Made by a program: the position numbers and the translations under genes. DNA of 45,163 bases from the NCBI GenBank assembly GCA_043814985.1, contig JBDRJK010000015.1, positions 1-45,163 on the forward strand, read 5' to 3'. Positions 3,913 through 42,058 of this stretch are shown in pieces; within the stretch, counting starts at the first letter, position 1; each line of letters begins with the position of its first letter. The notes beneath the pieces were generated by a model. The model made no database searches. It was not told the origin of the DNA and worked only from the letters and a program-made list of their open reading frames with translations. This stretch comes from Candidatus Aenigmatarchaeota archaeon. GTDB lineage: Archaea; Aenigmatarchaeota; Aenigmatarchaeia; Aenigmatarchaeales; Aenigmatarchaeaceae.

Positions 3913-3917
3913 TATGG

Positions 3918-6634: not shown

Positions 6635-6914
6635 TCTATCACGCTCTCTTTTAGAAACTTCAAAAAGCGTGATAGGATCGCATTCTCCAGTAGTACCTAA
6701 TCACAGGACGAATGCCGTTCCAGCATCGGCCTAAAGTTTTTACTTTGATAATAGTAGCAAACAGTTATTATTTAAAGATTGATGGAATATTGTACCCGTC
6801 ATGACAGCGTAATGCGACAGTTTAAGTAAATTACGTAAAATTCTGATTCGGTAAGAGGGGTGCAATATTGTATGAAGGCTGCACGCTAAGAAAACCGTGT
6901 AAGAGTTAGAAAAT

Positions 6915-7205
6915 TTATTCATACCTTTCTTTGGCAATATCTAAGAATATACCCAACTGTTCATCCCATTTGTCAAGTTCTTCCAGTATAGGATGTCTGG
7001 GCGGCAGTTCCATATTGAGAACATACTTGTCATAGAGCTTCTTATACTTCTTATTGAATGTATTGAAGATTCTCTTGAACTTCTCGGGGTTGTTATCCTT
7101 GATAGTCCTAAGTTCTACTTTCTTGTATTTTCTGAATCGCAGTTCGTTAGGAATCTTCTCCATAATGCCCGCGAAGGTATTGGAAGAATTAACATTTAAA
7201 ATCAT
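6915..7205 (-). CDS. Hypothetical protein downstream of the integrase
   Basis: 96-aa ORF starting 7 nt after the integrase stop; start uncertain. Confidence 0.55.
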   Translation of the reverse strand: MILNVNSSNTFAGIMEKIPNELRFRKYKKVELRTIKDNNPEKFKRIFNTFNKKYKKLYDKYVLNMELPPRHPILEELDKWDEQLGIFLDIAKERYE

Positions 7206-7212
7206 AGCTGGT

Positions 7213-8454
7213 TTACTCTATTGTTTTCTCAACCGATAACATAGATTGAAGCTTCTTCTCTATGGTATTCTGTATCATCTGCTCAAGAGAACTTGGAGTC
7301 ATCATCTGTATCAGCTGCTTCTCTTTCATTCTCGCAGCTTCATCCAATGTCTTGGCATCCAAAGGAAACTTGCATTTAACACAGTAAGAGTTATCGAACG
7401 GGTTTCTCTCACCGCAGTTTGCACAAACCTTAGGAACCAGTATGTCAACATTCTTCTGAATCTTGTCTGTTATGCCATACAAATCTCTCAGAAACATTTC
7501 GTCTACATCCTTGCCTGTCATGTGTATGTATATGCTCGGCATGGTAGAATCTTTTGTCCAACCAAAATTCTTTCTCAAACCTTCTTCAGGTATCTTCTTA
7601 GCAACCTGTGAAATTCTGCTATGACGGAATAGATGGGCGTATACTCTTTTGTTGATATTACACCTTTCCGCGGCTTTTCTCAGCAGTTTATTGAAACTGT
7701 TCCTATCCAACTTTTTCTTACTGTTTCTGACAGTAGGAAAAAGCCAAGCTTCTTCATTATCCTTGTCGGGATGATACTTCAACCATTGCTTAAGGTAAGG
7801 AATGCTGTTCACTACCCTTACCGAACGCACGCCTGTTTTTCCATCAACACACAACATGAACCCCCATTCATCTCTTTTCACTCCCTTTATTTTGATGTTT
7901 CTGAACTCAGATGAACGGAAGCCAGTCTCGTACAAAGTGCTGATAATCGCTTTGTTTCTTGGGTCTTTGGTAGATTCTATCATCCTTTTGATTTCTTCTT
8001 CCGTAAGGATATCCTCGGGTTTTACAGTCACTTGTTTCATCGAAACTTTCATATTAGCCAGAAAATCCGGCAGATTGTCCTTGGTCATCCATCTGTAGAA
8101 CTTCCTGATTCTAGCTTTGGTAGTGTTCATCGTAGTTTTCTTCCAGTTGTTTTTCTTCATTTCGATGATGTATTGCATGAAGGTGTCCTCATCTACACCA
8201 TCAAAATCGGTTTCTCCGACAAATTCTGCGAAATGATGAAGGGTCCCTACATACCCTACCTTAGAAACGTCTGATTCCAAGTCTCCTATGATATCCTGTT
8301 GGATTATGAACTTCTGTATAGTCTCCAAGTTTCTCCTAGAACCCTTGCTATCCCTGAGTTTGGGCTCATTTTTCTTGGTTCTGCCCTTTCTTGGGAACTT
8401 CAGATTGCTCATAGCTGACATATACTTCTGAAGCTTCTCTTCACTAGTCATCAT
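7213..8454 (-). CDS. Tyrosine recombinase/integrase with C-terminal zinc ribbon
   Basis: Catalytic set R (TGFRSSE), K (GKTG), HxxR (HLFRHS), W (FGW), Y (SIYIH); C-terminal CANC...CVKC. Confidence 0.95.
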   Translation of the reverse strand: MMTSEEKLQKYMSAMSNLKFPRKGRTKKNEPKLRDSKGSRRNLETIQKFIIQQDIIGDLESDVSKVGYVGTLHHFAEFVGETDFDGVDEDTFMQYIIEMKKNNWKKTTMNTTKARIRKFYRWMTKDNLPDFLANMKVSMKQVTVKPEDILTEEEIKRMIESTKDPRNKAIISTLYETGFRSSEFRNIKIKGVKRDEWGFMLCVDGKTGVRSVRVVNSIPYLKQWLKYHPDKDNEEAWLFPTVRNSKKKLDRNSFNKLLRKAAERCNINKRVYAHLFRHSRISQVAKKIPEEGLRKNFGWTKDSTMPSIYIHMTGKDVDEMFLRDLYGITDKIQKNVDILVPKVCANCGERNPFDNSYCVKCKFPLDAKTLDEAARMKEKQLIQMMTPSSLEQMIQNTIEKKLQSMLSVEKTIE

Positions 8455-25367: not shown

Positions 25368-25610
25368 ATGATCATAAACAACGAATTTAATGACCTTACC
25401 AAGAGGATTAGGGAGAACTTCATCACCCTGATAGTCTCTGCATTCGGTCTTGTGTCCGCCCTAAGCTGGAATGACGCCATAAAGTCAGCAATAGCCACGC
25501 TCTTCCCGAACAGCAGCGATCTTGTCTACAAGTTCTATGTCGCAGTGGCAGTTACCATTATAGCTGTCTTAATGACCTACTTCTTGTCCAGAGTCAAGCA
25601 AAAGCGCTAA
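25368..25610 (+). CDS. DUF5654-like small membrane protein
   Basis: SAFGLVSALSWNDAIK motif and two TM segments; start uncertain. Confidence 0.75.
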   Translation: MIINNEFNDLTKRIRENFITLIVSAFGLVSALSWNDAIKSAIATLFPNSSDLVYKFYVAVAVTIIAVLMTYFLSRVKQKR

Positions 25611-26227
25611 AAAGCACATTTAAAGGTGTTATGTTTAGAAACATGCTTAGGGTTGATAAAACCTATCAATTCTATGAATTTTTCCAAGTTATTCTTGCCT
25701 GGAAACTCTAGGCGATAAATCAATCCATTCTTCCTATTATTTCTATATACGTTCCCTTTCATTTTATTCTCCATCAAGAAATTCTTAATTTGGTTCAGAA
25801 ACCTAAGACATTTACTAGTTATCTCTAGCCTCGGATATGGTATGCCATTGTTATTAGTTATAACCAGAGAACCGTCTGTAGCGAATACCCCGGAAATAAC
25901 AAATTTGACTAGTCCTTTTTCATAGAAAATCTTTGGTATAAAAATTCTGTCTAGCTTCCTTCCTACAGGAAATCCTAGAGATTTTAAATAAAGAAACATT
26001 TTTTTATCAGATATATTTATTTCTATCTTTCCTTGTTTAGGCCTTTTTCTGTATTTTGTCTGTTTTCCTCTGATTTTACTAAAAATCGGTATAACTACCT
26101 TATTAAAGAAGGGCTCATCGTCATAAAAACTACCTGAAATAGAAATGAAGTATTTATTACAAGAATTAGACAAGCATCCATCACCAAGCATTATGCCATA
26201 AAGGGTAGCCAATTTGCTATCAACCAT
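25607..26227 (-). CDS. Free-standing double-motif LAGLIDADG (intein/DOD-type) endonuclease
   Basis: Motifs LYGIMLGDG and ISGVFATDG with both acidic residues intact; block-H-like LEKFIELIGF; no Hint domain. Confidence 0.9.
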   Translation of the reverse strand: MVDSKLATLYGIMLGDGCLSNSCNKYFISISGSFYDDEPFFNKVVIPIFSKIRGKQTKYRKRPKQGKIEINISDKKMFLYLKSLGFPVGRKLDRIFIPKIFYEKGLVKFVISGVFATDGSLVITNNNGIPYPRLEITSKCLRFLNQIKNFLMENKMKGNVYRNNRKNGLIYRLEFPGKNNLEKFIELIGFINPKHVSKHNTFKCAF

Positions 26228-26250
26228 TAATTTAAATTAGGCTCAATAAT

Positions 26251-26263
26251 AAGTTTATTATAT
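26251..26263 (+). promoter_or_regulatory. Probable BRE/TATA box for tRNA-Ile in a 61-bp divergent spacer
   Basis: AAGTTTATTATAT ending about 25 nt before the tRNA 5' end. Confidence 0.55.
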
Positions 26264-26288
26264 TTTACTACTGATAGTAGTAATGAAA

Positions 26289-26386
26289 GGGCGGGTAGCT
26301 TAGCCTGGTAGAGCGCCACATAATCAACTTCTGATTAGGCGATGCTGATAACGTGGAGGCCGGGAGTTCGAATCTCTCCTCGCCCA
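26289..26386 (+). tRNA. tRNA-Ile(GAU) with a 24-nt BHB intron at 30/31 (26320-26343)
   Basis: BHB: AG-CGCC-AC^A-TAATCA..TGATTA-GGCG-AT^G-CT. Splicing gives CCACG-CT GAT AA-CGTGG; acceptor GGGCGGG/CTCGCCC. Confidence 0.95.
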
Positions 26387-26398
26387 CTCTGTGGTTTT

Positions 26399-26752
26399 AT
26401 GAAGATTAACAAAGCGGAAGAAGGTAAGTGGTTAAAGGGAGACAGCTATTTCAAAAAAATATTATTGTCTGAAAGCGATCTAAAATCTCCCGGAAACGTG
26501 TTTCAAGTTGTTAAAGCCGAGAAAGGTGAAACCATAAAGTCACACTACCATAAGGAGACTTCTGAGGTTTTTTACATCTTAAAGGGCAACGGGATATTTT
26601 TTATCGGTGACAACAAGCAAAGATACAAAGAAGGAGACGTCTTGTTCTGCGAGGCAGGAGAAAGGCACGGAGTGATAAACGATACAGACGAGGAGTTTGT
26701 CTGGCTAGTCTTTAAAATCAATTTCACTGAAGACGATACTGTTTGGGATTAG
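26399..26752 (+). CDS. Cupin-domain protein
   Basis: HYHKETSEVFYILKG...GDVLFCEAGERHG; ATG 26399 lies just after tRNA-Ile. Confidence 0.88.
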   Translation: MKINKAEEGKWLKGDSYFKKILLSESDLKSPGNVFQVVKAEKGETIKSHYHKETSEVFYILKGNGIFFIGDNKQRYKEGDVLFCEAGERHGVINDTDEEFVWLVFKINFTEDDTVWD

Positions 26753-26753
26753 C

Positions 26754-27380
26754 ATGGAAATAATCAAACGCGGTGCAGAAGCCATTCTTTACCTAGAAAA
26801 TGGGAGCCTTGTCAAGGAAAGAGTCAAAAAAAGCTATCGACTGCCGCAAATAGACACGGAATTGAGAGTAGGCAGGACCAGAAGGGAGGCAAAGCTCCTT
26901 TCAGATGCAAGAAGATGCGGCGTCAACACCCCAATAATAGTCTCTGTTGACGAGAAGGACAGCAAGATAGTCATGGAATACATTGAGGGGGAGAGACTGA
27001 AGGAGTTCCTCAACAAGACAGATGATAAGAGCAGGGAGAAAACAGCAGAGGATGTGGGAAAGGCTGTTGGCATATTGCACAAGCAGGGAATCATACACGG
27101 CGACCTGACAACAAGCAACATGATCCTAAAGGATGGGAAGATATACCTTATTGACTTCGGACTGGGTGAGTTCACCAAGAGGATAGAGAGCCTGGCAGTT
27201 GACCTGTCAGTCATGAAGGAGGCCTTCAAATCGACCCATTTTAAACATTTAAATCTTTTATGGAACAGTTTTATAAAAGGTTATAAGCAGACGAATAATA
27301 ATTTTAATAAAGTTTTAGAAGCTTTAGATGATATAGAAAAAAGAGGAAGATACGTGAAAAGAGATGGAAGAAAAAATTGA
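26754..27380 (+). CDS. bud32: KEOPS complex kinase/ATPase Bud32
   Basis: RGAEA, KERVKKSYR, HGDLTTSN, IDFGL, C-terminal KRGRY. Confidence 0.95.
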   Translation: MEIIKRGAEAILYLENGSLVKERVKKSYRLPQIDTELRVGRTRREAKLLSDARRCGVNTPIIVSVDEKDSKIVMEYIEGERLKEFLNKTDDKSREKTAEDVGKAVGILHKQGIIHGDLTTSNMILKDGKIYLIDFGLGEFTKRIESLAVDLSVMKEAFKSTHFKHLNLLWNSFIKGYKQTNNNFNKVLEALDDIEKRGRYVKRDGRKN

Positions 27381-27630
27381 ACAGCATGTAGAGACAAAGC
27401 CTGCAGCTAGCAGGAGGTTTGACTTCAGGAAGTGGCTGGAAGGCAACAACAAGAAAGAATATGTGGAGAACATAAGCTTTGCTATAATAGTCATTTCAGG
27501 TGTCTTGGTTGCCATGGGAATCGGGATTGGCAGCTTTGTTCAAGGAACAATACTGTTAGGCGTGCTGGGCGCTTTTTTCGTGATGGTCGGCATAGTGATT
27601 TATATAATATCGCAGTTCATAGAGGTTTAA
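27364..27630 (+). CDS. Small membrane protein
   Basis: Two TM segments; tightly packed between bud32 and rps15. Confidence 0.7.
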
Positions 27631-27631
27631 T

Positions 27632-28090
27632 ATGGCAAGAATGCATTCAAGGAAAAAAGGCAAGGCCGGGAGCAGAAGGCCAGCAGCCAAGGCAAACTGG
27701 GTCACTTACACTGACAAGGAAGTGGAGAGGCTGGTCTTGAAGATGAGAAAGGATGGCATGGAAGTAGCCAAGATAGGTTTGGTTCTGAGAGACCAGTACG
27801 GCATACCTTCTGTCAAGCAGATTACCAACAAGACCATAACAAAGATTCTTGAGGAAAACAACCTGTTGTCAAAAATACCCGAGGAGCTTCTGGGTTTGTT
27901 GAAGAATGCAGTGAACCTTAGGGACCACTTGGTAAAGAACAAGAAGGACTATATTTCTAAGCATGGTTTGGAGCTTCAGGAAAGCAAGATAAGAAGACTG
28001 ATAAAGTATTACGTGAAAAACAAGAAATTGCCTGTTGGCTTTAAGTATGAGCCTGAGAGGGCAAAGTTGCTAGTTGAGACAGCAAAATAA
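27632..28090 (+). CDS. rps15: 30S ribosomal protein uS15 (S15/S13e)
   Basis: [14 protein letters not shown]...LRDQYGIP...[11 protein letters not shown]. Confidence 0.98.
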
Positions 28091-28118
28091 TAAATTAGTT
28101 ACAGACGATATAATTCTG

Positions 28119-29405
28119 ATGAAGGAACTTACTATTCTTCTTAACAGGGCTGTTGAAAAAATAAAAACAACAGACAGCATTATACAGGTTGTCTCCCACA
28201 TGGACGCTGACGGCCTGAGCGCCGCTGCAATAATAGCGGTTGTTCTCATCAAGCTCAAGAAGAAATTCCAAATAACTATCGTGAAAATGATCAAGCCTGA
28301 GATTGTGGAGATGTTGGATAGCAGGGAGCCCGAGCTTGTCATATTCACTGACATAGGCTCTGGTTATCTGGACATCCTGAAAAAAATAAAGGCTGACATG
28401 ATAGTTCTGGACCACCATGAGATTGAGGGAACACCTTCTGACAACATGATCCACATCAATCCACTGGATTTTGAGATCAGTCTGTCAGGCGCAGGCACAA
28501 CCTATCTGCTGGCAAAGGAGATTATGGATGACAATTCCTTGGCGCCTCTGGCGATTGTGGGAACAATAGGCGATGTGAACTACTCACCTGATTCAAAGCT
28601 CTTTGAAACGCCATTAATAAAAGCTGAGATGGGTCTGAATCTCTTTGGAAGGTTCACTAGACCTTTGTACAAGTCATTATCATATTCGGGCATACCCAGC
28701 ATAGACAACTCATCAAAATCAATCCAGTTCCTCTCGGAGATAGGCATTGATTCCCAGAAGAACGGTGAATGGGTAACGCCGAGCGACCTGAACGAAGAGG
28801 AGAGGAAGAAGCTTGCAGACGCCATTGTAAAAGAGAGTTTAAAGTACGGCAAGTTCAAGTCCAAGAAAATATTCAACAACAACCTTACTCTTAAGAATTT
28901 CCCAGAGGAGTTGAGAGATCCAAAAGAGTTTGCCATGACCCTCAACGCATGCGCCAACATGAACGAATCAGCAACCGGGATAGCCCTTTGTTTAGGAAGT
29001 GAAAAGGCCCTGAAAGCTGCAAGGGGTGTTGTGAGAGGATACAGAAGGCTAATAGGCAATTACATGAAATGGGTCGAGAACAACAAGGAAAGCATCAGGC
29101 AGACCGAGCATGCAACCTACCTAATGGCAGGGGACAACATCAACGACAACCTTATTGGAACAATTGTCTCCATGCTGTTCAGACCCTCGGGAAAGACCAT
29201 GTTCGGCTTTGCGAATGCAGAGGACGGGATAAAAATATCTGGAAGGTCGAAAAATGTTGACATAAGAAGAATAATCACTGAGGCTGCAAGCATTTGTGAA
29301 GGAAGAGGTGGGGGACACGAATTCGCAGCAGGCGCAACAATACCATCCAACACCCAGGAAAAGTTCATTGAAAAGTGCGAGGACCTTTTAAAAGAGATTA
29401 AGTAG
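28119..29405 (+). CDS. DHH phosphoesterase (archaeal RecJ/GAN/Cdc45-like)
   Basis: SHMDADG, TDIGSG, LDHH, GGGHEFAAG; conserved position after rps15; ATG 28119 preferred. Confidence 0.92.
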   Translation: MKELTILLNRAVEKIKTTDSIIQVVSHMDADGLSAAAIIAVVLIKLKKKFQITIVKMIKPEIVEMLDSREPELVIFTDIGSGYLDILKKIKADMIVLDHHEIEGTPSDNMIHINPLDFEISLSGAGTTYLLAKEIMDDNSLAPLAIVGTIGDVNYSPDSKLFETPLIKAEMGLNLFGRFTRPLYKSLSYSGIPSIDNSSKSIQFLSEIGIDSQKNGEWVTPSDLNEEERKKLADAIVKESLKYGKFKSKKIFNNNLTLKNFPEELRDPKEFAMTLNACANMNESATGIALCLGSEKALKAARGVVRGYRRLIGNYMKWVENNKESIRQTEHATYLMAGDNINDNLIGTIVSMLFRPSGKTMFGFANAEDGIKISGRSKNVDIRRIITEAASICEGRGGGHEFAAGATIPSNTQEKFIEKCEDLLKEIK

Positions 29406-29415
29406 AATTACTATT

Positions 29416-29802
29416 ATGAAGGCTATATCATCCCTAATATCCGTTATACTTATTTTAATGATAGGCATTTCTCTGGTCTCATCAATGTACATATTCTTCA
29501 CAGAAGTAATAGCGACAAGCACTGACGCTGGCACGGAAACAGCAGAACACATCTCTTCTTCTTTAATGGCTGAGATGAAAATAGACTCGTTGACAACTGC
29601 TGGCATTGTTACTATCAAGAACACGGGAAAGGTCCAGCTGACGAACTTCAATGTCTTTGTGAATGGTGCCATGGAGGCCACCTCCTCCATCACAATAATG
29701 CCGGGAGACTCTGATGACATTGATGTGGGCCCTCTCTTGACTGGGGATATAGTCAAGGTTACAAGTTCTGAGGGAGCAGCCGCAATAAGCAGCGTGCCCT
29801 AA
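29416..29802 (+). CDS. Archaeal type IV pilin-like protein
   Basis: Class III signal peptide MKA^ISSLISVILILMI; IKNTG motif. Confidence 0.85.
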   Translation: MKAISSLISVILILMIGISLVSSMYIFFTEVIATSTDAGTETAEHISSSLMAEMKIDSLTTAGIVTIKNTGKVQLTNFNVFVNGAMEATSSITIMPGDSDDIDVGPLLTGDIVKVTSSEGAAAISSVP

Positions 29803-29850
29803 ACGTCCTTTTGTTAAGATTTATAAAGTTATAAACTGTATTTAATCTCT

Positions 29851-30399
29851 ATGGCTTCGAAATTAAAGGGTAAAGACTGGTATCAGATAACTGCTCCGAA
29901 GTTTTTCGGGGACTTTGTTATTGGTGAGACCATTGCCTTTGACCCAGAGCAGATTAAAGGAAGGGTTGTGGAAACAAGCCTGACAGACATAACAGGTGAC
30001 CCCAACAAGTACTACCTGAAGTTCTATTTCAAGATAGACAGTGTGGACAACAGCAAGGCACTAACCAAGTTCGTAGGCCATGACTGTACCAGGGATTATC
30101 TGGCAAGGATAGTCAGGAGAAGGAAGACAAGGATAGACACGAACGACATAATAGAACTAAAGGACAACAAGATAAGGGTCAAGTCAATAGCCATTTCTAA
30201 CAGAAGGGTCAGCCACCCAATAGAGATCAAGGTAAGAAGGATAGTAAGGGAAATGATAATACAGGAAGTCACGAAGCTTAAGACTGAGGAGTTCATCAGG
30301 GAGATAATAGACGGCAAGCTCCAGGCAAATATAAGGAAGAGCGTTAGCAAAGTCTATCCTCTGAGGTTCTTCGAGTTCAGGAAGACGGAAGTATTATAA
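29851..30399 (+). CDS. rps3Ae: 30S ribosomal protein eS1 (S3Ae)
   Basis: KDWYQITAPKFF...GRVVETSLTDITGD...TRDYLARIVRRR...YPLR. Confidence 0.96.
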   Translation: MASKLKGKDWYQITAPKFFGDFVIGETIAFDPEQIKGRVVETSLTDITGDPNKYYLKFYFKIDSVDNSKALTKFVGHDCTRDYLARIVRRRKTRIDTNDIIELKDNKIRVKSIAISNRRVSHPIEIKVRRIVREMIIQEVTKLKTEEFIREIIDGKLQANIRKSVSKVYPLRFFEFRKTEVL

Positions 30400-30424
30400 T
30401 TTGTGAGTTCCATATATTTTTCTT

Positions 30425-30814
30425 ATGAATAAAAGGGATTATGCGTTCTTAATATTGTTCTTAGTAATACTGGCAACCAGCTTTATCTTCATCTATCAGA
30501 ACAGAGATTCATTTGACTGCTCCATAGAATATTCCTACGGCGACATCATGGGGGACATAGAGTACGAGTTCGAGCCAGAGGGTTCTGCATACGGGAAAAC
30601 AAAGATTTTCAGGTTTATCATATCCTCCCACAGGAACAGGATCGAGTATTTCGGCATGGAAGTAACAGATGTGTATGGAAATGTTCTGTTCTTTGAGAAC
30701 CTGACCAACCCGGACGGAGGTTCAATATCAATTTCTCTAGAATCAGACGAGAACGAAACGCTCACTGTGAGAAGGTTCTTCAAGAAAACATGCTACCCTG
30801 AAATGCAATTATGA
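30425..30814 (+). CDS. Hypothetical membrane-anchored protein
   Basis: N-terminal TM and a beta-rich external domain. Confidence 0.65.
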   Translation: MNKRDYAFLILFLVILATSFIFIYQNRDSFDCSIEYSYGDIMGDIEYEFEPEGSAYGKTKIFRFIISSHRNRIEYFGMEVTDVYGNVLFFENLTNPDGGSISISLESDENETLTVRRFFKKTCYPEMQL

Positions 30815-31015
30815 TTCTTCAACCTGAATGATTGCTGTTGATATCCAGAACATACCGCCAAGAAGTATCAATACAAATGATATTATATAGGCCATTGCGA
30901 CCGAGGTTGTTGTTGCACCTAGAACAGTAGTCTCTACACTACCAGCTATTAGAGCACCTATGAAAATGCATATTGCCCCTATTATCCAGAACGCTATTGA
31001 CCTTGAGTCTGCCAT
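30809..31015 (-). CDS. Small membrane protein
   Basis: Two TM segments. Confidence 0.65.
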   Translation of the reverse strand: MADSRSIAFWIIGAICIFIGALIAGSVETTVLGATTTSVAMAYIISFVLILLGGMFWISTAIIQVEES

Positions 31016-31056
31016 GAATATGAGTTTTTCTTTTAGATATTTATATTTGATGGTAT

Positions 31057-32208
31057 TCAGTTGAAAAATGCTTCAATTTCCATATCAATAATCTTAGAAA
31101 GTTCGTATCTTGTCTCAACTCTTTTCCTTTCACGCTGTCCCCATTTGGAATAATCAGTTTGACCATTGAAAAAACTAGCTATTTTTTCAGCTAACTCATG
31201 ATGATTACCAGGAGTAAATTTCTGGTCTTCCCAACCTTCTAACTGGTCCTTCAAGCCACCAACATCACTTACTATAACAGGAGTTTCACAGCTCATACCC
31301 TCAGTGCATGACATCCCAAAACTCTCAAAATAAGAGGGTACAATCAAAAGTTTAGCTCCTGAATAGATTGAAGACATTTTCTCATGTGGAACAAAACCCC
31401 TATATTTTATAGATTTTTCCAAACCCAATTCTTTTATCATACTTTCATATTGTTTGAATGGGTCCTCATTACCAAAAACATCAACCTCAAGTTGCATGCC
31501 TTTCTCTTTTGTAAGAATATTAAGAGCTTTTGATATTACATCAAAACCTTTAACAGGATTTTTACATCTTGCCGCAAATAGAATATCTGTATTCTTTTCT
31601 TTTGAATTTTTTTTGAATTTAGATGTATCAACCGGTTCAGGAATAATATGTATTTTAGAGTTATCGATTTTATACTCTGTTTCCAACCATTTAGCACTTG
31701 TTGTCGATGTTGTTTTTATATCATCACAGTTTTCTATTGTTGTCTTTTCTATTTTTATCAAATCATCAGTTCCATTGCTCCCATAAGGAAGTTTTATGCC
31801 ATATTTACCAGCAATCTCTAGCATGTATTTTTTTAAAGCTGAATCCCTGTAAACACGTCTAGTTCCTGGGAATTTTTTAAATAAATCTGAACCATGATAA
31901 GTATGAGATATCATGACATCCGGCTTCAATCTTTTAACAGTAGAAACTGATTTTTTACAAAGCTCCTTTATTCTCTCGAATCTGCCAGAATAATCCATAG
32001 GATTTTGCCCTGCAGCCAACGATTCAAGCCTGATCGGTATTGAATTAGGCAAACAACTACCAACTCCAGGAACATAAGGGCAGATAGCCCTGACATCCAA
32101 TCCCCTTTTCTCATATTCTTGCAAAGATTGCTTTATTGCTTCATGGCCTCCTCCATGAGGGACAGATTCCAATGTTACATATACACCGTCTATAGGCACC
32201 TTTATCAC
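31057..32208 (-). CDS. GT4 (GT-B) glycosyltransferase
   Basis: GGG near the N-terminus, KGFD, PSYFESFGMSCTEGMSC (ExxxxxxxE), SDVGG. Confidence 0.92.
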   Translation of the reverse strand: MIKVPIDGVYVTLESVPHGGGHEAIKQSLQEYEKRGLDVRAICPYVPGVGSCLPNSIPIRLESLAAGQNPMDYSGRFERIKELCKKSVSTVKRLKPDVMISHTYHGSDLFKKFPGTRRVYRDSALKKYMLEIAGKYGIKLPYGSNGTDDLIKIEKTTIENCDDIKTTSTTSAKWLETEYKIDNSKIHIIPEPVDTSKFKKNSKEKNTDILFAARCKNPVKGFDVISKALNILTKEKGMQLEVDVFGNEDPFKQYESMIKELGLEKSIKYRGFVPHEKMSSIYSGAKLLIVPSYFESFGMSCTEGMSCETPVIVSDVGGLKDQLEGWEDQKFTPGNHHELAEKIASFFNGQTDYSKWGQRERKRVETRYELSKIIDMEIEAFFN

Positions 32209-32218
32209 TACCTAGAAT

Positions 32219-32266
32219 GGTACTATTATTGGTACCAATACATGTACTTATAATTGTACCTTAACT
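32219..32266. repeat. Four GTAC-centred units at exact 12-bp spacing, including a 14-bp palindrome
   Basis: GTAC at 32220, 32232, 32244 and 32256; TATTGGTACCAATA at 32227-32240. Confidence 0.8.
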
Positions 32267-32305
32267 ATTTAAAGAGTGGTGCCAAAATAAAATTGGTGAT
32301 AAAGT

Positions 32306-32575
32306 ATGAAAGCCCCAAATATAATCAAAAATTTGGTTAAGGACAACTCTATAAAATCGATATTCAGGACTCTCTTCAAAGAAAGTCATGAAGGAAAGCT
32401 AGGGGTATCTATAACAATGCTGTCAGAGAAGACGGGAATAGAGAGACACAAGCTTGTTGGCATTCTAGAAGTTTTAGTTGTCTTAGGAATTCTAGTTGTC
32501 TTTGACATAGGTATGGCCAAAGCATTTGCCCCATCGCCAATGCTGTTAAAAGTGAAAAATCTCATCAGACTATAG
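32306..32575 (+). CDS. Small winged-helix protein, probable regulator
   Basis: GVSITMLSEKTGIERHKLVGILEVLVVLGIL...IGMAKAF; divergent from the GT4 gene. Confidence 0.7.
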   Translation: MKAPNIIKNLVKDNSIKSIFRTLFKESHEGKLGVSITMLSEKTGIERHKLVGILEVLVVLGILVVFDIGMAKAFAPSPMLLKVKNLIRL

Positions 32576-32637
32576 AAGAGTTGTTCTGTTTTCTTTTTTA
32601 TTCAAGATTTAAATAGACTTGAAATCAAACTATTTTT

Positions 32638-32910
32638 GCAGGGGATAGATTGGGGAGCTACCGGTTCTCTGTTAGCGCAAATCCGGTTCATGGCGCGATC
32701 GAAGCCCGAGGGCGATGTTAAGAATCTATGAGGCCCTATCGGCTGACTGAGAAGCTTCGTCCTGTAGAGTTGCTGTTATAGCGAACCGTAGGAGGCGGGG
32801 AACCGAGCACTACTAAGTTATGGTAGTGACGTTTATAGGGTCGCGAAGTGGAGAAGGTTGACAGGATTAACTTCATAAATTCTTCTCACCCACCAAAGGC
32901 GTTCTCCTGC
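32638..32910 (+). ncRNA. ffs: Signal recognition particle (7S) RNA
   Basis: Termini pair (GCAGGGGAT / GTTCTCCTGC); helix 8 GTAG-GAGG-CGG-GGAA-CCG-AGCA-CTAC at 32788-32813; TTTAAATA box upstream and T-run downstream; GC-richer ORF-free gap. Confidence 0.9.
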
Positions 32911-32954
32911 ATCTTTTTGAGAAGTTTTTTATCCTTTAGGGAAGAGATATATTT

Positions 32955-33710
32955 ATGGCCCGCTACAAGTACCAGAAAACCAATTACACTTCCTACATTG
33001 TTATTCTGTTGGTAGGATTATTGATTGGGTTTGCGTTGACATCATTATTTTTTTCCGTGGAGCCTGAAAAGGAAGTCGCTGTTGTTCCTGAGGAACCCCT
33101 GAAGAAGATGTATGCTGAGATAAATCTTGTTGCTGTTGACCAGGAGGGAAACGGCGTCTCAACGCCTTTGACAGTTGAGGCAATCCCAGGCGACGGCAAG
33201 GTTTTGACAGACATAGAGAAGCTTTTGTTCTGGGTTGACACGCAGTACTCGATACAGACTGCGAGAAATGTTGCAATAAACATAACCAAGAAGAACATGA
33301 ACGACTATGATCTGATATACAGCATAAAAACCGAGGCAACACTGGTAGGCGGCCCCTCTGCAGGTGCAGCCTTAACGCTTGCGACAATAGCTGCCTTGCA
33401 AAACAAGACCCTGAAGAATGACATAATAATAACAGGGACAGTGGATCCTGACGGCTCAATAGGCCAGGTCGGCGGTGTTCTGGAAAAGGCACAGGCAGCA
33501 AGCGATGTCGGCATCAAGGTTTTCCTAGTCCCACCAGGCCAGGGAGAAGAAGTCTACTTGAGACCAAATGAAACCTGTGAAAGAAAGGCTGGCTTCATTT
33601 TCTGCGAGACAATCTATGAACAGGTTACAATCAACATAGGAGACAGCGTGGGCATTTCTGTAATAGAAGTTGAGAACATAAAAGAGGCAATGGCATATTT
33701 CGGCTTATGA
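32955..33710 (+). CDS. Membrane-anchored Lon-like (S16) protease domain protein without ATPase
   Basis: GGPSAG (catalytic Ser), ITGTVDPDGSIGQVGGVLEK (catalytic Lys); N-terminal TM. Confidence 0.9.
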   Translation: MARYKYQKTNYTSYIVILLVGLLIGFALTSLFFSVEPEKEVAVVPEEPLKKMYAEINLVAVDQEGNGVSTPLTVEAIPGDGKVLTDIEKLLFWVDTQYSIQTARNVAINITKKNMNDYDLIYSIKTEATLVGGPSAGAALTLATIAALQNKTLKNDIIITGTVDPDGSIGQVGGVLEKAQAASDVGIKVFLVPPGQGEEVYLRPNETCERKAGFIFCETIYEQVTINIGDSVGISVIEVENIKEAMAYFGL

Positions 33711-35174
33711 TCTTAGCTTCTCAAGAGTTTTTTCAGGGTCAGCCCTGTAGTCAGAAAAAATAGCAACAACATCCTTGAAATTGTTCAACTGTTTCTTGTG
33801 TATTATATCAAGCAGTTCCGTTCTCCTCTTTATTTCCTTCAGCAAATCGCTTGTCTCAACGCCCTTCTGAACTGCTATTTGTTGCAGTAACCATGAAACT
33901 CCCTTGTAGTTGAACTTGTCCTCCTTGGGAGACCAACGGTAGACATTGTTGGTCCTTGCCTTGCCTGTCTCAGCTGAAACAGATTCTATCTCGACAATCT
34001 CCTTGACCCTTCTTGCAGACTCGTTCTTTTCCCTTGCATGAATCATGACAATTATCAGATCAAGAGTGTCAACTAATGAAGGTGATAGGTTGATGGGAGG
34101 GGTTTCCAACCTGTAGATAACATCCTCAACCCTGCCGGCATGCATTGTTCCCATTGCTGGTATGCCGGAAGCCATGCCCTGGAACATGACATAGGCTTCT
34201 TTTCCTCTGACCTCACCCACAACAACATAATCAGGTGTCTGCCTGAATGACTCCTTCAGCAAGTCGAACATTGTTACCTCGCCGTAGCCCTTTGCAAAAC
34301 CAACCCTTGTGACTGCGGGTATCCAGTTCTCGTGAGGAATGTTCAACTCTCTTGTATCCTCTATTGATATTATCTTTAACTGCGTTGGTATGAACATCAG
34401 AAGAACATTTAACAGGGTTGTCTTCCCAGTGCCTGCCCCTCCTGATATTAGAACAGAAGAACCGTTCTCGACTGCCAGCCAAAGGTATGCAAGCATCTCA
34501 GTGTTGATTGTTTTCTTGTTTAACAAATCTACTGGCGAGTATGGTTCAGGGACAAACTTCCTTATTGTGAAGCTCGGTCCTTTGGTTGTGACATCAGTAG
34601 CGAATGTCGCCTGAACTCTTGAACCATCTGGAAGAGTCCCGTCCAACAATGGTTCAGCATATGAGACGAATCTCCCACACCTCTCGGCTAGCTTCACTAC
34701 AAAGTCCTTTAATCTTTTTTCTTCATTGTAGACAATGTTGGATTTTATTGAGCCGTACTTCCTGTGGACAATGAATATTGGGATTTTCATGCCGTCGCAG
34801 GAAATGTCCTCTATCTCAGGGTCCTGCATGAAAGGCTCTATCTCGTTCAAACCGACAAAGTCCCTCTGGATATAATAAATTATTTTGTTGAGGCTCGTCT
34901 CTGAAAGCTTGATTTCATACTCGTCAAGAATCTTGTTGATTTGCTCCTTCAGATAGTTCAGTGCCTCTCCCCTCTTCTTGATTGAGGAAAGCTCGACATC
35001 AAGTAATTCCAGAAGTCCATTGACTATCTTCTCCTGTGTGGCTTTTTCATCATTGGTGAGCTGAGGCTCAAGAACTTTGTAAAGAAATTCCTTTTTCTTT
35101 TCATCCCACTTTATTTCCACAGACGTGAGTGGTGAGGATAAATTGTACTTAGAATCTTTTTCTCTCTCAGGCAT
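33705..35174 (-). CDS. Type II/IV secretion (pilus assembly) ATPase
   Basis: EDISCDG, Walker A GGAGTGKTT, IEDTRE, VVGEVRG, His-box TMHA. Confidence 0.95.
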   Translation of the reverse strand: MPEREKDSKYNLSSPLTSVEIKWDEKKKEFLYKVLEPQLTNDEKATQEKIVNGLLELLDVELSSIKKRGEALNYLKEQINKILDEYEIKLSETSLNKIIYYIQRDFVGLNEIEPFMQDPEIEDISCDGMKIPIFIVHRKYGSIKSNIVYNEEKRLKDFVVKLAERCGRFVSYAEPLLDGTLPDGSRVQATFATDVTTKGPSFTIRKFVPEPYSPVDLLNKKTINTEMLAYLWLAVENGSSVLISGGAGTGKTTLLNVLLMFIPTQLKIISIEDTRELNIPHENWIPAVTRVGFAKGYGEVTMFDLLKESFRQTPDYVVVGEVRGKEAYVMFQGMASGIPAMGTMHAGRVEDVIYRLETPPINLSPSLVDTLDLIIVMIHAREKNESARRVKEIVEIESVSAETGKARTNNVYRWSPKEDKFNYKGVSWLLQQIAVQKGVETSDLLKEIKRRTELLDIIHKKQLNNFKDVVAIFSDYRADPEKTLEKLRS

Positions 35175-35261
35175 AAGGATTTATTGGTTGAGATGTTTAT
35201 TAAAGTTTGTGCTATAAAGGCGTACTTAATAAGGATTTAAGGATTATTTTTCAGAGATAAT

Positions 35262-35996
35262 TTAAGAAACTGTAACAGCTGTTTTATTAGTATGTGAAGG
35301 CCCTAATAGTAATATTACTGGTTCTTTTTCAGTTGGAGAAAGTTCATCTATTGAATCTATAAGAAGAGAATTGAAACATCTTGTGTATTTCTCTGGGTAG
35401 AAAGTCAAACATGTACTGCCATCATTAAGTTCAAAGGTTTCTACATCTGTACCCAAAAGATTTCTGTATATTATAGTTAATTTATTTACTATCTCAAAGG
35501 TGTCGGCAAGGAAGAATGGGTTCTCTGTTTCATTATGGAAATAGGCAATGTTTATTTTGTAAACCTCAGGGTTTAGTAAAACATCTTTGATAGCACCTTC
35601 ATCAGGATAGACGTGGGTTAAATTTGCTTCGTTTAAATCTGCACGAAAGTGCCTTCTATCGCCAGCGTAATCTAATACATAGAAAATTTCTTCTGTTACG
35701 TTATGTCTTTCACCTTCTGATTCATCATATTGAGTTATTTTTAATTCATAAAATGTACCAGTATCGGCATCTTCCAACATCAAAACAAGCAACATTTTAT
35801 CAACAGCCAAGTCAAGGTCTGTGTATAATCTATCTATCTCTGAGAAATCCTTACCTTCCAAAGTAATCATACTATAGTTTACAACTGGTGTTGTGTTGTT
35901 TTGTTGCATATTAGTTTCAGTATTTTGTATGCATCCAGCTACCAAAACCACTGCTAAAATCAGTATATCTATTAGGATTTTCATTTGTAAAACCAA
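35262..35996 (-). CDS. Putative lipoprotein
   Basis: Lipobox-like VLVAGC; true start probably MKILID. Confidence 0.7.
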   Translation of the reverse strand: MVLQMKILIDILILAVVLVAGCIQNTETNMQQNNTTPVVNYSMITLEGKDFSEIDRLYTDLDLAVDKMLLVLMLEDADTGTFYELKITQYDESEGERHNVTEEIFYVLDYAGDRRHFRADLNEANLTHVYPDEGAIKDVLLNPEVYKINIAYFHNETENPFFLADTFEIVNKLTIIYRNLLGTDVETFELNDGSTCLTFYPEKYTRCFNSLLIDSIDELSPTEKEPVILLLGPSHTNKTAVTVS

Positions 35997-36193
35997 TCTT
36001 TATTTGAAAGAGCCAGAGATAATAAAATTCCTATTCCTAACATAAAAAGATATATACCAAATAAAATTTGCTCAATAGCAGCAATCTCATTAGAACTGCT
36101 TTGGGGGGTCATAAAGGAGCTGATTGAACCTATTATACCCAAACCTATTAAAATATTAGCTAAAATTTTTAAACCACCTTTTAGTTTTCCCAT
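35981..36193 (-). CDS. Small membrane protein
   Basis: Two TM segments; AT-rich. Confidence 0.6.
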   Translation of the reverse strand: MGKLKGGLKILANILIGLGIIGSISSFMTPQSSSNEIAAIEQILFGIYLFMLGIGILLSLALSNKDWFYK

Positions 36194-36194
36194 A

Positions 36195-36509
36195 CTATCT
36201 ACTTCTTTTTCTTAAGGTTTCCCATGTTACCTTCTTTTTTTCTTTTGATTCATTTTCTGCTTTTTTGTTAGTTTCTTTACCTTTTTTTATTTTAATCAAA
36301 CTTTTCAATCCAAAATAAGCAATTATTAAACCACCAATCATTAAAAGATAAACTTTTCCACCCTCTGACATGGCATTGGTTTGGGTTCGCCAATCATCTG
36401 AATTCATAGCATCATTTAAAGCATCACCTAGAGTTCCATAGCGAATGAACAGAGTAACAGCAACAATAATACAGACAATAACCACAACATCTATTATCCA
36501 TTCATTCAT
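36195..36509 (-). CDS. Small membrane protein
   Basis: Two TM segments and a Lys-rich tail; AT-rich. Confidence 0.6.
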   Translation of the reverse strand: MNEWIIDVVVIVCIIVAVTLFIRYGTLGDALNDAMNSDDWRTQTNAMSEGGKVYLLMIGGLIIAYFGLKSLIKIKKGKETNKKAENESKEKKKVTWETLRKRSR

Positions 36510-36583
36510 ACTAGAAATATAGAAAAATAGGCTTTTAATCTTTTGTAAATCTTATTATTTATACGGTAAAAGTTTGTGATTAA

Positions 36584-37504
36584 ATGATTCCGGAAAACGT
36601 TCAAGCTGTTCTGAAAAGGCAGAGGTACAAGATTGTCGGCAACCATTCAGCTGCCAAGCTGTGCTTGTGGACAAAAAGGTCAATAAAGACAGGCGGCAAA
36701 GAACATTGCTACAAGGAGCAGTTCTACAAGGATATTGGAATAAAGTCCCATGGTTGTCTGCAGTGCACTCCTGCTGTTATGTGGTGTTCAATGGGATGCA
36801 GGTTCTGCTGGAGAGCAACAGAGATGACACTGGGTCAGAAAATAAAAAATGAGGAAGAACCTGAGAAACTTGTGGAGGGTTTCATAGAAGCGCAGAGAAA
36901 ACTTCTGACTGGGTTGGGTGGAGTTCCACATGATGAGAAGTATCTTAAGGAAGCGCAGAATCCTTCCAATGCTGCAATATCATTGAGCGGTGATCCTTGC
37001 TGCTATAGCCAACTTTCTGACTTAATCAAAGAGTTCCACAGGAGAAAAATGAAAACCTTTGTTGTCACCAACGGAACTTTTCCAGAAGCCCTTGAATCCT
37101 TGGAGACTTTACCAACCCAACTTTATGTTTCAATGTCCTTTTTTAATAAAAAAATGATGGACAATGTCAATGTTCCTTTGGTGAAAAACGCTTGGGAGAG
37201 ATATCAAAGAACTTTAAAGTTATTGCCTTCACTCAAGACAAGAAAGGCAATAAGATTGACAATGGTGAAAGGGCTGAACATGATGAATCCTGAAAATTAT
37301 GCGGAGATGATTAAGATTGCCTCGCCTAATTTTGTTGAAGTTAAGAGTTTCATGGCTGTAGGCTTCTCTAGGAAAAGATTGCCTTATTCTGCAATGCCAA
37401 CACACGAAGAAATAAAAGAATTTTCTCAGAAGATTGCTGATAATATTGATTATAAAATTGCTGACGAGAAAAAGGAAAGCAGGGTCGTTCTATTGACAAA
37501 ATGA
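36584..37504 (+). CDS. taw1: 4-demethylwyosine synthase Taw1/TYW1 (radical SAM)
   Basis: GNHSAAKLCLW, CYKEQFY, CSMGCRFCWR, AISLSG, EVKSFMAVGFSRKRL. Confidence 0.95.
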   Translation: MIPENVQAVLKRQRYKIVGNHSAAKLCLWTKRSIKTGGKEHCYKEQFYKDIGIKSHGCLQCTPAVMWCSMGCRFCWRATEMTLGQKIKNEEEPEKLVEGFIEAQRKLLTGLGGVPHDEKYLKEAQNPSNAAISLSGDPCCYSQLSDLIKEFHRRKMKTFVVTNGTFPEALESLETLPTQLYVSMSFFNKKMMDNVNVPLVKNAWERYQRTLKLLPSLKTRKAIRLTMVKGLNMMNPENYAEMIKIASPNFVEVKSFMAVGFSRKRLPYSAMPTHEEIKEFSQKIADNIDYKIADEKKESRVVLLTK

Positions 37505-37536
37505 AGATTTAAATAAAAAACTATTCAATTTTAATT

Positions 37537-37848
37537 ATGGCTGTAAGTGAACTTTTTTTAGATTTATTACCTCAGTTATCTCCTTATGCAACATTAGCAG
37601 CGTTATCATTAACATCTGCAGCGTTTACTAGTGGGTTGTTCAGAAATCGTGGTAAATATCCTATTTTTAATAAGGTATCAAATGATTTTCTCGTAGCATT
37701 TTTTAGCTTTACTATTGGAATATTATTTACATCCGCTAATAGTCTTTTTCCTAATAATGATATTATAGGAGCAGGTATGATATTCTCATTGTTTATAGGC
37801 ATTTTATTTCTCTCATTTTCAGCTTGGAATCTTCTTAAAGTATATTAA
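37537..37848 (+). CDS. Small membrane protein
   Basis: Three hydrophobic segments; AT-rich. Confidence 0.6.
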   Translation: MAVSELFLDLLPQLSPYATLAALSLTSAAFTSGLFRNRGKYPIFNKVSNDFLVAFFSFTIGILFTSANSLFPNNDIIGAGMIFSLFIGILFLSFSAWNLLKVY

Positions 37849-37915
37849 TTAGATTGTAAATTACCACCAAAAGTAGTACTTTAATTTTATATTCTAAGAC
37901 TGATGTTAATATGCC

Positions 37916-38677
37916 GTGAGAAGATTTTCTAGCAAAGAAAAAGATAGTATAATAAAGCTGAGAAAAAGAGGAAAGTCCTTGAATCAAATCTGCAATATTC
38001 TTAAGGTAAATGTCAAAAACAAATCCAGCATCTACTTCCATCTTAGGAAGAATTTTGGCAGAAGCTATAAACTAGTAAAGCTGAATCTTTCCAACCAAAA
38101 TCTAATCGGAGAGGTGATGGGATTGTTTGCTGCTGATGGAAGTGCAGTACCACAGACCGACTACCAAATAAGATTTCACTTATCTTTAGATGAAAAGAAA
38201 TACGCCAAAGATTTCAAATCTGTCTTGAAAGAAGTATTCAACAAAATACCTTCAATTTACGAAACCGAGAGAAACTCAATATCAATAAGATATAGGTCAA
38301 AGGTGATTTACGAGTTTATAAAAAATTATTTGTTTTGGGAAGGAAAGAAAACCTATACAATCAAATTAAAGTCCTTGAACCATACAAATAAATTCTTAAT
38401 CGGTTTTCTAAGAGGCTATTTTGACGGCGATGGCTATTCAAGAAAAGAATCAAAAACAGCCGAAATAGTCACAACATCGAAAAACATGCATAATCAACTA
38501 AAGGATATCTTGTCTTTGCTAAATCTCAGCTTCAGCACAAGAATTTATAATGATAAAAGAAGAAAAAGGCATACAGCGTACTACATATATTTAAGAAAAC
38601 TAGATGCTGTAAAATTTATCAGACTGATAGGACCGAGAAATCCTAAAAGAATGAGAAATTGGGGGCCCGTCGTATAG
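37916..38677 (+). CDS. Free-standing double-motif LAGLIDADG endonuclease with N-terminal HTH; stop codon inside tRNA-Pro
   Basis: Motifs VMGLFAADG and LRGYFDGDG; N-terminal IIKLRKRGKSLNQICNIL..KSSIYFHL; TAG at 38675-38677. Confidence 0.9.
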   Translation: MRRFSSKEKDSIIKLRKRGKSLNQICNILKVNVKNKSSIYFHLRKNFGRSYKLVKLNLSNQNLIGEVMGLFAADGSAVPQTDYQIRFHLSLDEKKYAKDFKSVLKEVFNKIPSIYETERNSISIRYRSKVIYEFIKNYLFWEGKKTYTIKLKSLNHTNKFLIGFLRGYFDGDGYSRKESKTAEIVTTSKNMHNQLKDILSLLNLSFSTRIYNDKRRKRHTAYYIYLRKLDAVKFIRLIGPRNPKRMRNWGPVV

Positions 38678-38752
38678 CTTGGTCTAGTATATACGCTTGG
38701 GGAAGTAAAATCCAAATTGTGTATGACCCCGGTTCAAATCCGGGCGGGCCCA
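38663..38752 (+). tRNA. tRNA-Pro(GGG) with a 15-nt intron at 37/38 (38703-38717)
   Basis: Acceptor GGGCCCG/CGGGCCC; central helix TTGG/CCAA with GG^A and AT^T; splicing gives TACGC-TT GGG GT-GTGTA; T arm CCCGG-TTCAAAT-CCGGG. Confidence 0.93.
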
Positions 38753-38803: not shown

Positions 38804-39103
38804 ATGATAAAAACTAGCATGAGATATTGTAAAAAGTGTAAGAAAGTGACATCATGGATGCTAAACCCAAAAATTAAACATAGTAGATGTTTACAATGTA
38901 ATGGTAGGTGGGCTCAAAGACCAAATGGAATGAAGTTCCCTGAAGAAATCGTAAAGGAAGAAGTAAAATTACTCGAAAAAAAGGCTGGAGAAAGAAAAAG
39001 AAAAATTGACGAAGGGGAGAAAGTAAAAAAGTTGAAGAATAAATATAAGAGGATTATGAAAAGGGCCAAGAAAAGGATGCAAACACTAGCCAAATTATTT
39101 TAA
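38804..39103 (+). CDS. Basic zinc-ribbon hypothetical protein
   Basis: CKKC...CLQC followed by a Lys-rich helix. Confidence 0.65.
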   Translation: MIKTSMRYCKKCKKVTSWMLNPKIKHSRCLQCNGRWAQRPNGMKFPEEIVKEEVKLLEKKAGERKRKIDEGEKVKKLKNKYKRIMKRAKKRMQTLAKLF

Positions 39104-41515: not shown

Positions 41516-41690
41516 TGCGGAGGGCCGGATTTGAACCGACGAACCCACTAAGAGACAGGATATCTCATCTCCAGCAAGTTGCCTTGCCTCAAAACTTAAG
41601 CGTCTGATCTTAAGTATCGCACAGCAATTGTCCTGCGCCTTTGGTCATGTCCGCTCTACGAACATTTTGACCAGACTTGGCTACCTCCGC
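41516..41690 (-). tRNA. tRNA-Leu(UAA) with three introns: 21/22 (41641-41666), 30/31 (41616-41631), 37/38 (41562-41608)
   Basis: Acceptor GCGGAGG/CCTCCGC-A and long variable arm. Three BHBs (central helices GGTC/GACC, CGCA/TGCG, CTTA/TGAG) splice to CAGGA-CT TAA GA-TCCTG. TTTATAAG box upstream. Confidence 0.92.
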
Positions 41691-41758: not shown

Positions 41759-42058
41759 TTATTGGGGGAATAATTCAAACGCCTTTCTCGTTAAACAATA
41801 TCTTTTTTCATCGAATTTTTTTAAATATCCTGCTTTTTCCAGTTTCTCAGCAATCTTAGGATCGTTTAGCCTTATAGTACTTCCAGCATAAGTACTAGAA
41901 TGAATAACTGATTCTAAATTGTCTTGTTCTACCAGTTCTTTTAGTGTTTCAAATTCTTCACTACCTATACTAGAAGCCCTAAATTGATAAGCGGTATTTA
42001 ATTTTTCTTCTCCATGTTGTTTTTCTAATTTTTCTAATTCTTTAAGAACATCTTCCAT
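41759..42058 (-). CDS. AT-rich hypothetical protein with a wHTH-like C-terminus
   Basis: EKLEKAGYLKKFDEKRYCLTRKAFELF; lies between rpoD and tRNA-Leu. Confidence 0.65.
   Translation of the reverse strand: MEDVLKELEKLEKQHGEEKLNTAYQFRASSIGSEEFETLKELVEQDNLESVIHSSTYAGSTIRLNDPKIAEKLEKAGYLKKFDEKRYCLTRKAFELFPQ

Follow-up and report, generated by a model that had tools for sequence, protein, structure and literature searches.

A stretch of 45,163 nucleotides (the window), contig C15 in the genome of a Candidatus Aenigmatarchaeota archaeon (G000; 808 kb, 91% complete), carries two free-standing LAGLIDADG endonuclease genes, ORF1 and ORF2, adjoining an intron-bearing tRNA-Ile(GAT) and an intron-bearing tRNA-Pro(GGG), respectively. 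Both ORFs are very likely tRNA-cutting homing genes. The two loci are probably selfish homing cassettes that would cut their own tRNA type and bring in a resistant copy of it, the intron being the usual, although not the only, shield; this reading has good support at the ORF1 locus and weak support at that of ORF2. It is likely that an intron at position 30/31 shields a tRNA from ORF1, while shielding from ORF2 by an intron at 37/38 is possible but somewhat doubtful.

ORF1 (25607..26227, minus strand) is an open frame for a predicted free-standing, monomeric LAGLIDADG endonuclease of 206 amino acids, which belongs to a clade found beside Ile-GAT and CAT tRNAs. It starts 61 nt from tRNA-Ile(GAT) (26289..26386, plus strand; Rfam RF00005, 48.1 bits), head-to-head with it. 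The tRNA holds a bulge-helix-bulge (BHB) intron of 24 nt at position 30/31 (26320..26343, plus strand), with 4/4 pairs in the central helix and an inner helix of 6 bp, and this intron is predicted to interrupt the ORF1 target. Minimum-energy folding fails to give the cloverleaf of the pre-tRNA (z -0.16), and the BHB was scored by direct pairing. The gene is optional and lies outside any intron or intein: in the closest sister genome, G002 (flanks 86% alike), and in G003 (74%), the allele is empty and both ORF1 and the Ile intron are missing, while G001 (73%) has the intron alone. The AT-rich spacer of 61 nt (26228..26288, unstranded) was brought by the cassette, has no counterpart in these three sisters, and must hold the putative promoters of both ORF1 and tRNA-Ile. 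At the left insertion edge lies an AT-rich box (25613..25624, plus strand). Homology to the empty G002 allele stops at 25624, and the G002 counterpart of the box sits 26 nt before tRNA-Ile; hence the segment 25625-26288 was inserted and pushed the presumed old promoter away from the tRNA. The box is probably the stranded TATA box of the original tRNA-Ile promoter. A bacterial promoter scan, with a model not suited to archaea, gave fewer sites than shuffled sequences. A contig of run X3 covers 25565-26318 with zero differing letters, its independence being limited by its origin in the same study as the best holder; no RNA data set was among the holders listed.

ORF2 (37916..38677, plus strand) is an open frame for a predicted free-standing LAGLIDADG endonuclease of 253 amino acids from a tRNA-Pro clade. 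It runs into tRNA-Pro(GGG) (38663..38752, plus strand; ARAGORN, Rfam 43.3 bits) with an overlap of 15 nt, so that its last five codons, including the stop, are positions 1-15 of the tRNA, which has a canonical BHB intron of 15 nt at 37/38 (38703..38717, plus strand; central helix 4/4 pairs). In both introns, a 4-bp helix stands between two 3-nt bulges at the predicted splice sites. With intron lengths of 24 and 15 nt and the ORFs outside, the layout is not the intron-encoded one of the I-DmoI type; both tRNAs are conserved genes with an ORF-less intron adjoining a free-standing endonuclease gene. ORF2 was not found in G001, G002 or G003, and BLAST of the sister loci places tRNA-Pro of the window inverted relative to its flanks when compared with all three, so the G002 allele is not a simple deletion of ORF2. 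One relative (L363) has the same layout behind a wyosine gene, with the old 3' end on the opposite strand. The locus may thus have arisen by insertion at the tRNA-Pro 3' end; the tRNA, whose acceptor strands are self-complementary, would then have flipped between them. Two AT-rich, family-less ORFs (37537-37848 and 38804-39103) flank the ORF2-tRNA-Pro pair, and the sisters have other genes or none there, which marks the spot as a turnover site. Run X2 gives no cover over 37775-38325 and no contig joining across it, and nothing is drawn from this.

Both proteins match Pfam PF14528 (LAGLIDADG_3) above the cut-off (E 1.9e-9 for ORF1 and 2e-18 for ORF2) and have no Pfam match to intein families; NCBIfam returned nothing but intein-host names, far under the cut-off. 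The motifs are intact, GIMLGDG and GVFATDG in ORF1, GLFAADG and RGYFDGDG in ORF2. D16 and D118 of ORF1 are invariant in 8/8 aligned proteins, and both motifs are kept in 26/26 loci of its clade. The structure models (mean predicted local distance difference test, pLDDT, 92 for ORF1 and 89 for ORF2) predict two alpha-beta-beta-alpha-beta-beta-alpha domains in each protein, supported by Foldseek matches (E 3e-10 for ORF1, 2e-10 for ORF2), and two LAGLIDADG helices, each with an acidic last residue. The top match of ORF1 is I-Tsp061I (2dch, E 3e-10); ORF2, whose model adds a predicted N-terminal extension of three helices (6-17, 22-28 and 33-47), matches intein endonuclease domains, I-Tsp061I and I-DmoI. 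The monomeric two-motif fold is shared with I-Tsp061I, I-DmoI and PI-PfuI (best Foldseek template modeling score, TM, 0.6-0.7), and a tie to BHB introns is shared with the first two, which are archaeal rRNA-intron enzymes; but all three are encoded inside an intron or intein, and identity to them is 17-20%. The GC fractions of 0.32 (ORF1) and 0.33 (ORF2) lie below the 0.39-0.47 of nearby housekeeping genes, several other accessory ORFs being equally AT-rich, and the two proteins are 21% identical. The sequence-only reading, which had described two intact, free-standing, AT-rich endonuclease genes that are not close copies of each other, beside intron-bearing tRNAs, is borne out on all these points. 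The LAGLIDADG maturases bI3 and I-AniI are also among the fold matches of ORF1, and a maturase gene would adjoin its own substrate; proteins that bind pre-tRNA and aid the splicing of awkward introns are nevertheless a most improbable account, since the same introns occur without the gene (Ile in G001, Pro in G002, and the three-intron tRNA-Leu of the window), the gene also stands beside intronless tRNAs, and the splicing endonuclease EndA is present.

Adjacency of LAGLIDADG genes and tRNAs in the host genome is real and far beyond chance: five of its eight LAGLIDADG ORFs adjoin a tRNA, whereas of all 758 ORFs 34 have one at a distance of up to 150 nt (binomial p 9e-6). These five lie directly 5' of the Ile-GAT, Pro-GGG, Ser-GGA, Ser-GCT and Arg-CCT tRNAs. 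Introns are present in 5/5 of these tRNAs versus 17 of the 37 host tRNAs found (p 0.014), the list of 37 being incomplete and a tRNA-Gln fragment on contig C12 being left unresolved (C12:10008-10080, the 5' portion of tRNA-Gln(CTG), broken off in the T loop). Four of the five have a 30/31 intron; the fifth host tRNA with an intron there is tRNA-Leu(TAA) of the window (41516-41690, minus strand). This gene, missed by the Rfam scan, has three BHB introns (D-loop, 26 nt; 30/31, 16 nt; 37/38, 47 nt) and no adjoining LAGLIDADG gene, the only ORF nearby being an unnamed one of 99 amino acids (41759-42058). The enrichment beside tRNAs that had been predicted extends to the order. Across the own genome and 25 relatives, taken from 150 of 201 matches with frames up to ~420 amino acids, 31 of 70 non-intein frames (100-450 amino acids) adjoin a tRNA among the matches listed, or 26 of 63 without the own genome. 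As 15 of the 70 are in rRNA loci (14 by motif, one by Rfam), the fraction outside rRNA loci is 31/55, and 28 of the 31 adjoining tRNAs among these matches have an insertion. The three other host LAGLIDADG genes (C11:36449-37708, C14:83803-84930 and C12:21256-21936) adjoin protein genes, which we take to be NreA-like, topoisomerase I-like and ribosomal protein L1 genes. Elsewhere, at L036 and L038, free-standing LAGLIDADG genes stand directly before a gene, presumably Alba-like, whose start seems to be interrupted by a small insert; this may be a BHB intron within a protein-coding gene.

Within a clade, the enzyme genes adjoin a single type of tRNA. On a FastTree phylogeny of 217 proteins, 170 of them with a tRNA label (24 set by eye), the amino-acid label changes 39 times, versus a minimum of 96 in 200 shuffles; because kin share labels, this demonstrates fidelity rather than co-evolution. 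The ORF1 clade (25 tree rows, support 93) comprises loci at 40-55% identity, of which 25/26 lie within ~310 nt of an Ile-GAT (5) or CAT (20) tRNA and one lies at a contig edge. The gene is 5' on the same strand in five, 5' head-to-head in one (the window), 3' on the same strand in eight and 3' convergent in 11; with four layouts round the same tRNA, the genes are tied to the tRNA body rather than to a single insertion spot. The anticodon-arm sequence is common to Ile-GAT and these CAT genes, as expected of a DNA target inside the tRNA. The records holding ORF1 relatives are metagenome-assembled genomes of Aenigmatarchaeota, Woesearchaeota, Pacearchaeota and other Nanoarchaeota-type lineages, some labelled just 'archaeon' or 'Methanosarcinales'. 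The ORF2 clade (11 tree rows, support 90) stands beside tRNA-Pro, the Pro gene being decayed (L362) or truncated (L363) at its two closest relatives, and viral relatives of ORF2 were limited to distant matches of 22-43% over short stretches. Other clades have intron positions of their own, mostly 29/30 for iMet and mostly 53/54 for Gly-TCC. Introns in these remaining clades were called automatically and partly wrongly; tRNAs of the ORF1 clade and of the Pro clade were inspected by eye, as the template aligner mislabels multi-intron genes. Additionally, the first tRNA finder overlooked tRNAs whose introns lie in the T arm or acceptor, most of the tRNA genes that ARAGORN called with relaxed settings were false, and 20 loci were classed by script alone. 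The genes could also be leftovers that once lay inside tRNA introns, or that arrived at old introns and no longer move with them, the tRNA flank being a safe landing place. Their closest solved folds are indeed BHB-intron and intein enzymes, most 30/31 introns stand alone, and turnover of homing endonuclease genes is named as another origin of such pairs in the available part of Barth et al. (10.1101/2023.03.23.533998); even so, a landing place alone does not account for 39 versus at least 96 label changes, four layouts and motifs kept in 26/26 loci, and this explanation is quite improbable.

Across the gene from the present tRNA, old tRNA ends remain in at least five of the 11 convergent ORF1-clade loci, as well as at L363 and L364. 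Within the host genome, C13:10105-10152 holds a former 3' end of tRNA-Arg(CCT), which corresponds to the G002 allele and lies behind the replaced, intron-bearing gene. The displaced ends in relatives and behind the host's own Arg-CCT indicate that the cassettes come with a tRNA part of their own. The two window loci show just the stranded promoter box and the inversion, and no tRNA remnant. Two further loci have partial tRNA copies. At C13:26800-26819, the tRNA 5' end is repeated in the terminal stretch of the Ser-GGA enzyme gene, right before the real tRNA; at the initiator tRNA-Met of G002 (L012:1438-1998), 10 nt of the tRNA 5' end are copied ahead of the inserted gene, and behind it stands a complete tRNA copy interrupted by introns at 4/5 and 59/60.

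Comparison with the sisters ties genes to introns. Between G000 and G002, gene presence differs at seven loci, and at six of them (Ile, Ser-GCT, Ser-GGA, Arg-CCT, Thr-GGT and iMet) the carrier has introns missing from the empty allele; an intron difference occurs at one of the 21 other G000/G002 loci (p 1e-4), the comparison leaving out four G002 matches. For the five host tRNAs beside LAGLIDADG genes, a search of the own genome with up to 3 mismatches gave no intronless copy of the spliced junction; the sister loci contain such copies at 0-3 mismatches. A G001-type allele was found at low depth beside the window organism in contigs of runs X2 and X3, so both allele types meet in nature. The Ser(GGA) and Ser(GCT) genes of the host (C13:26820-26924 and C5:7214-7328) have near-identical 30/31 introns (21 nt and 19 nt), each tRNA being preceded by an unrelated LAGLIDADG gene; their G002 counterparts are intronless and gene-less.

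Introns above background were expected beside such genes, and this was found for the ORF1 clade. A 30/31 intron is present in 17 of 25 neighbouring tRNAs (5/5 Ile-GAT and 12/20 CAT), compared with 14 of 105 CAT matches (~13%) in 201 genomes of another order, six of the 14 being carriers themselves; this background includes five unpublished genomes, one with the intron, and is 13/100 without them. For Ile-GAT, the background is 4 of 71 matches in the class, the window's own included, with a pattern blind to introns longer than ~27 nt. A search starting from the tRNA took 50 of the 105 CAT loci (30, plus seven more intron-bearing and 13 more without), five of which were dropped for short flanks. 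An ORF1-clade gene stands beside 3/10 CAT genes with a 30/31 intron and 0/35 without (p 0.008); two of the three carriers are new and one was already in the set, and one of the 35 tRNAs without a 30/31 intron has a gene of another clade beside it. Gene and intron thus co-vary across relatives of ORF1, though not strictly. At the loci L522-L571, the 37/38 introns of CAT tRNAs mostly have TGATGA-like and CTGA-like boxes, as C/D guides do.

The link with introns is weak for the Pro clade. Among its ten complete neighbouring tRNAs, a 37/38 intron occurs in 6/10 versus 21/61 in the background (p 0.16), and any intron in 8/10 versus 23/61 (p 0.017); the 61 are 67 matches minus five non-tRNA sequences and the own gene. 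Intron positions in this clade vary (37/38, ~43-46, 53/54 and 59/60). The Pro intron may well predate ORF2.

Several findings weigh against the proposed link between gene and intron. On the side of ORF1, five of the 25 neighbouring tRNAs have introns at other positions only (37/38 or the D-loop) and three (L313, L315 and L317) are intronless, while the intron is present in 6/15 gene-less loci of the family's Ile-GAT tRNAs and 7/10 CAT genes with a 30/31 intron lack an adjoining enzyme gene. In the tRNA-first search for Ile-GAT (50 loci, 44 assessable), upstream insertion and LAGLIDADG gene were unlinked (1/10 vs 2/34, p 0.55); the two LAGLIDADG genes of the second group belong to other clades, and their tRNAs have introns at 37/38 or in the T arm. 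No viral relatives of ORF1 were found. On the side of ORF2, G002 holds the Pro intron, 14/15 identical, without the gene, as do G008, G029 and G030, and G001 and G003 have neither; two of the ten Pro-clade neighbours (L367 and L142) are intronless. The tRNA-Thr(CGT) beside an enzyme gene in G003 and three of the 31 adjoining tRNAs among the order-wide matches also lack introns, so the intron is neither obligatory nor the sole possible shield. Kin among the compared genomes are non-independent, so that the p values overstate. Horizontal transfer of the Ile intron from G000 to G001, plausible at first in view of flanks 73% alike, is not claimed: at 21/24 identical positions it is no more alike than other shared introns (32/34, 49/49 and 35/38), which makes transfer indistinguishable from two losses. 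The expectation that relatives without the gene would lack the intron stands for ORF1 in G002 and fails for ORF2 in the same genome; that the intron spreads with the nuclease is well supported for the Ile pair and unproven for the Pro pair.

Intronless carriers also bring in homing by allele replacement with no role for the intron, in which the tRNA is cut, immunity comes from base changes in the tRNA half carried along, as in WHO elements, and introns hitchhike in the converted tract or mark intron-rich lineages. At L313, the displaced 3' half differs from the new half in the variable region and T arm, and both the varying intron positions of the Pro clade and the occurrence of the ORF2-associated intron in a gene-less sister fit this account. 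It is unlikely all the same, as the Ile-GAT exons round 30/31 in G000 match those of the empty G003 and G002 alleles exactly or with one change, leaving the intron as the sole distinction there, and as intron positions are clade-specific. Base-change immunity was considered for three intronless CAT neighbours with an odd 31:39 pair and is not claimed, two of them being maybe of another CAT isotype.

The idea offered earlier as an alternative, that the enzymes defend the host by cutting incoming elements with intronless tRNA attP sites while the intron guards the host copy, finds little support. Introns protecting attB sites have been proposed, according to the available text of two reports (PMC3293823, PMC4090602), and the same chemistry would yield defence as a side effect. 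The window itself contains an integrated element (616-8454) with a fused type I M/S methylase, a Prim-Pol/D5-like helicase and a tyrosine integrase, with no adjoining tRNA within the window. However, the genes are sporadic and differ in presence between sisters whose flanks are 86% identical, the clades keep one tRNA type, the displaced tRNA ends and AT-rich inserts mark inserted cassettes, and no integrase or defence genes were found near the two loci. Host defence is accordingly very improbable as their primary role.

The observed gene anatomy, clade-to-tRNA fidelity, empty alleles, gene-intron co-variation and displaced tRNA ends are all compatible with a homing cycle whose cleavage, target position, immunity and direction of transfer are presumed. 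The target of ORF1 would be the anticodon arm of Ile-GAT and CAT tRNAs, and that of ORF2 would lie within tRNA-Pro. When carrier DNA meets an empty allele, the enzyme would cut the uninterrupted tRNA gene, and repair would copy the carrier's tRNA part or intron nearly always and the adjoining enzyme gene less often. The carrier would be immune because its own tRNA differs there, most often through a short BHB intron and sometimes probably through base changes, and the host splicing endonuclease would remove the intron at no cost. The intron could then spread with or ahead of the gene and persist after gene loss. Lone introns are expected from such a cycle, and equally from any other origin.

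By analogy, the loci would work like collaborative homing, with traits of SegB and of WHO elements. In the available text on cyanophage S-PM2 (PMC6083498), F-CphI adjoins the intron-containing psbA, a case of collaborative homing, and T3/T7-like cases are described in the accessible part of a preprint (10.1101/2023.03.23.533998). As far as those sources go, the archaeal loci resemble F-CphI and psbA in having a free-standing, optional endonuclease gene by a conserved gene, with an ORF-less intron in the predicted target. They differ in lying on a cellular archaeal chromosome, in encoding LAGLIDADG rather than Endo VII-type enzymes, in having tRNA as the predicted target, in having a protein-spliced BHB intron of 13-35 nt instead of a group I ribozyme, and in making up a whole family whose clades each have a tRNA type of their own; cleavage is predicted here. 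Phage T4 SegB, in the portion of its report available (PMC2330249), is likewise free-standing among tRNA genes, cuts inside them and spreads the region; unlike the present enzymes, it is a GIY-YIG protein of a phage, with a relaxed T-arm motif site in many tRNAs and no intron. WHO elements at FBA1 of Torulaspora and Lachancea, as described in the available text (PMC7282813), share a homing gene by its target, a carried replacement part and old ends left behind, but they are intein-like zinc-finger proteins with a protein-coding target and allele-specific cleavage without an intron. Neither the intein-like domain nor the zinc finger has a Pfam match in the two ORFs, which are thus not filed under WHO. 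The intron-gain model for tRNA-Thr(GGU) of Caldiarchaeum (PMC3293823) also has an element deliver an intron-bearing tRNA piece and leave a tRNA fragment; it invokes an integrase and att recombination, with neither 'homing' nor 'LAGLIDADG' in the available text, whereas the sole gene here is the endonuclease. Another available text concerns group I introns in rRNA (PMC6125680). No description of the family was found in literature on LAGLIDADG genes beside archaeal or DPANN tRNA introns, subscription papers and supplements (including that of an Asgard preprint) being mostly outside its scope.

A broader proposal is possible, though less than even in its chances: LAGLIDADG drives of DPANN archaea, one clade per tRNA type and site, would select for and spread non-canonical BHB micro-introns, giving a DNA-level mechanism of archaeal tRNA intron gain and 'transposition'. 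A cut repaired with the paralogue as template would account for near-identical introns in paralogues, such as Ser-GGA and Ser-GCT. Genes that overlap the tRNA 5' end, ORF2 among them, would be carried in the leader of the pre-tRNA, and RNase P would limit their expression by removing the stop codon. The host genome encodes EndA and an RNase P RNA, and HARP (PF08745) has no match in its 91%-complete sequence.

The finding offers a testable route for the spread of archaeal tRNA introns. A named enzyme and two natural alleles that share their exons, one empty (from a sister) and one with the intron, make for a simple assay. If the reading is true, collaborative homing extends from the group I introns of phages to the BHB introns of cells, DNA exchange among DPANN cells is implied, and these genomes would hold many small meganucleases with predictable targets.

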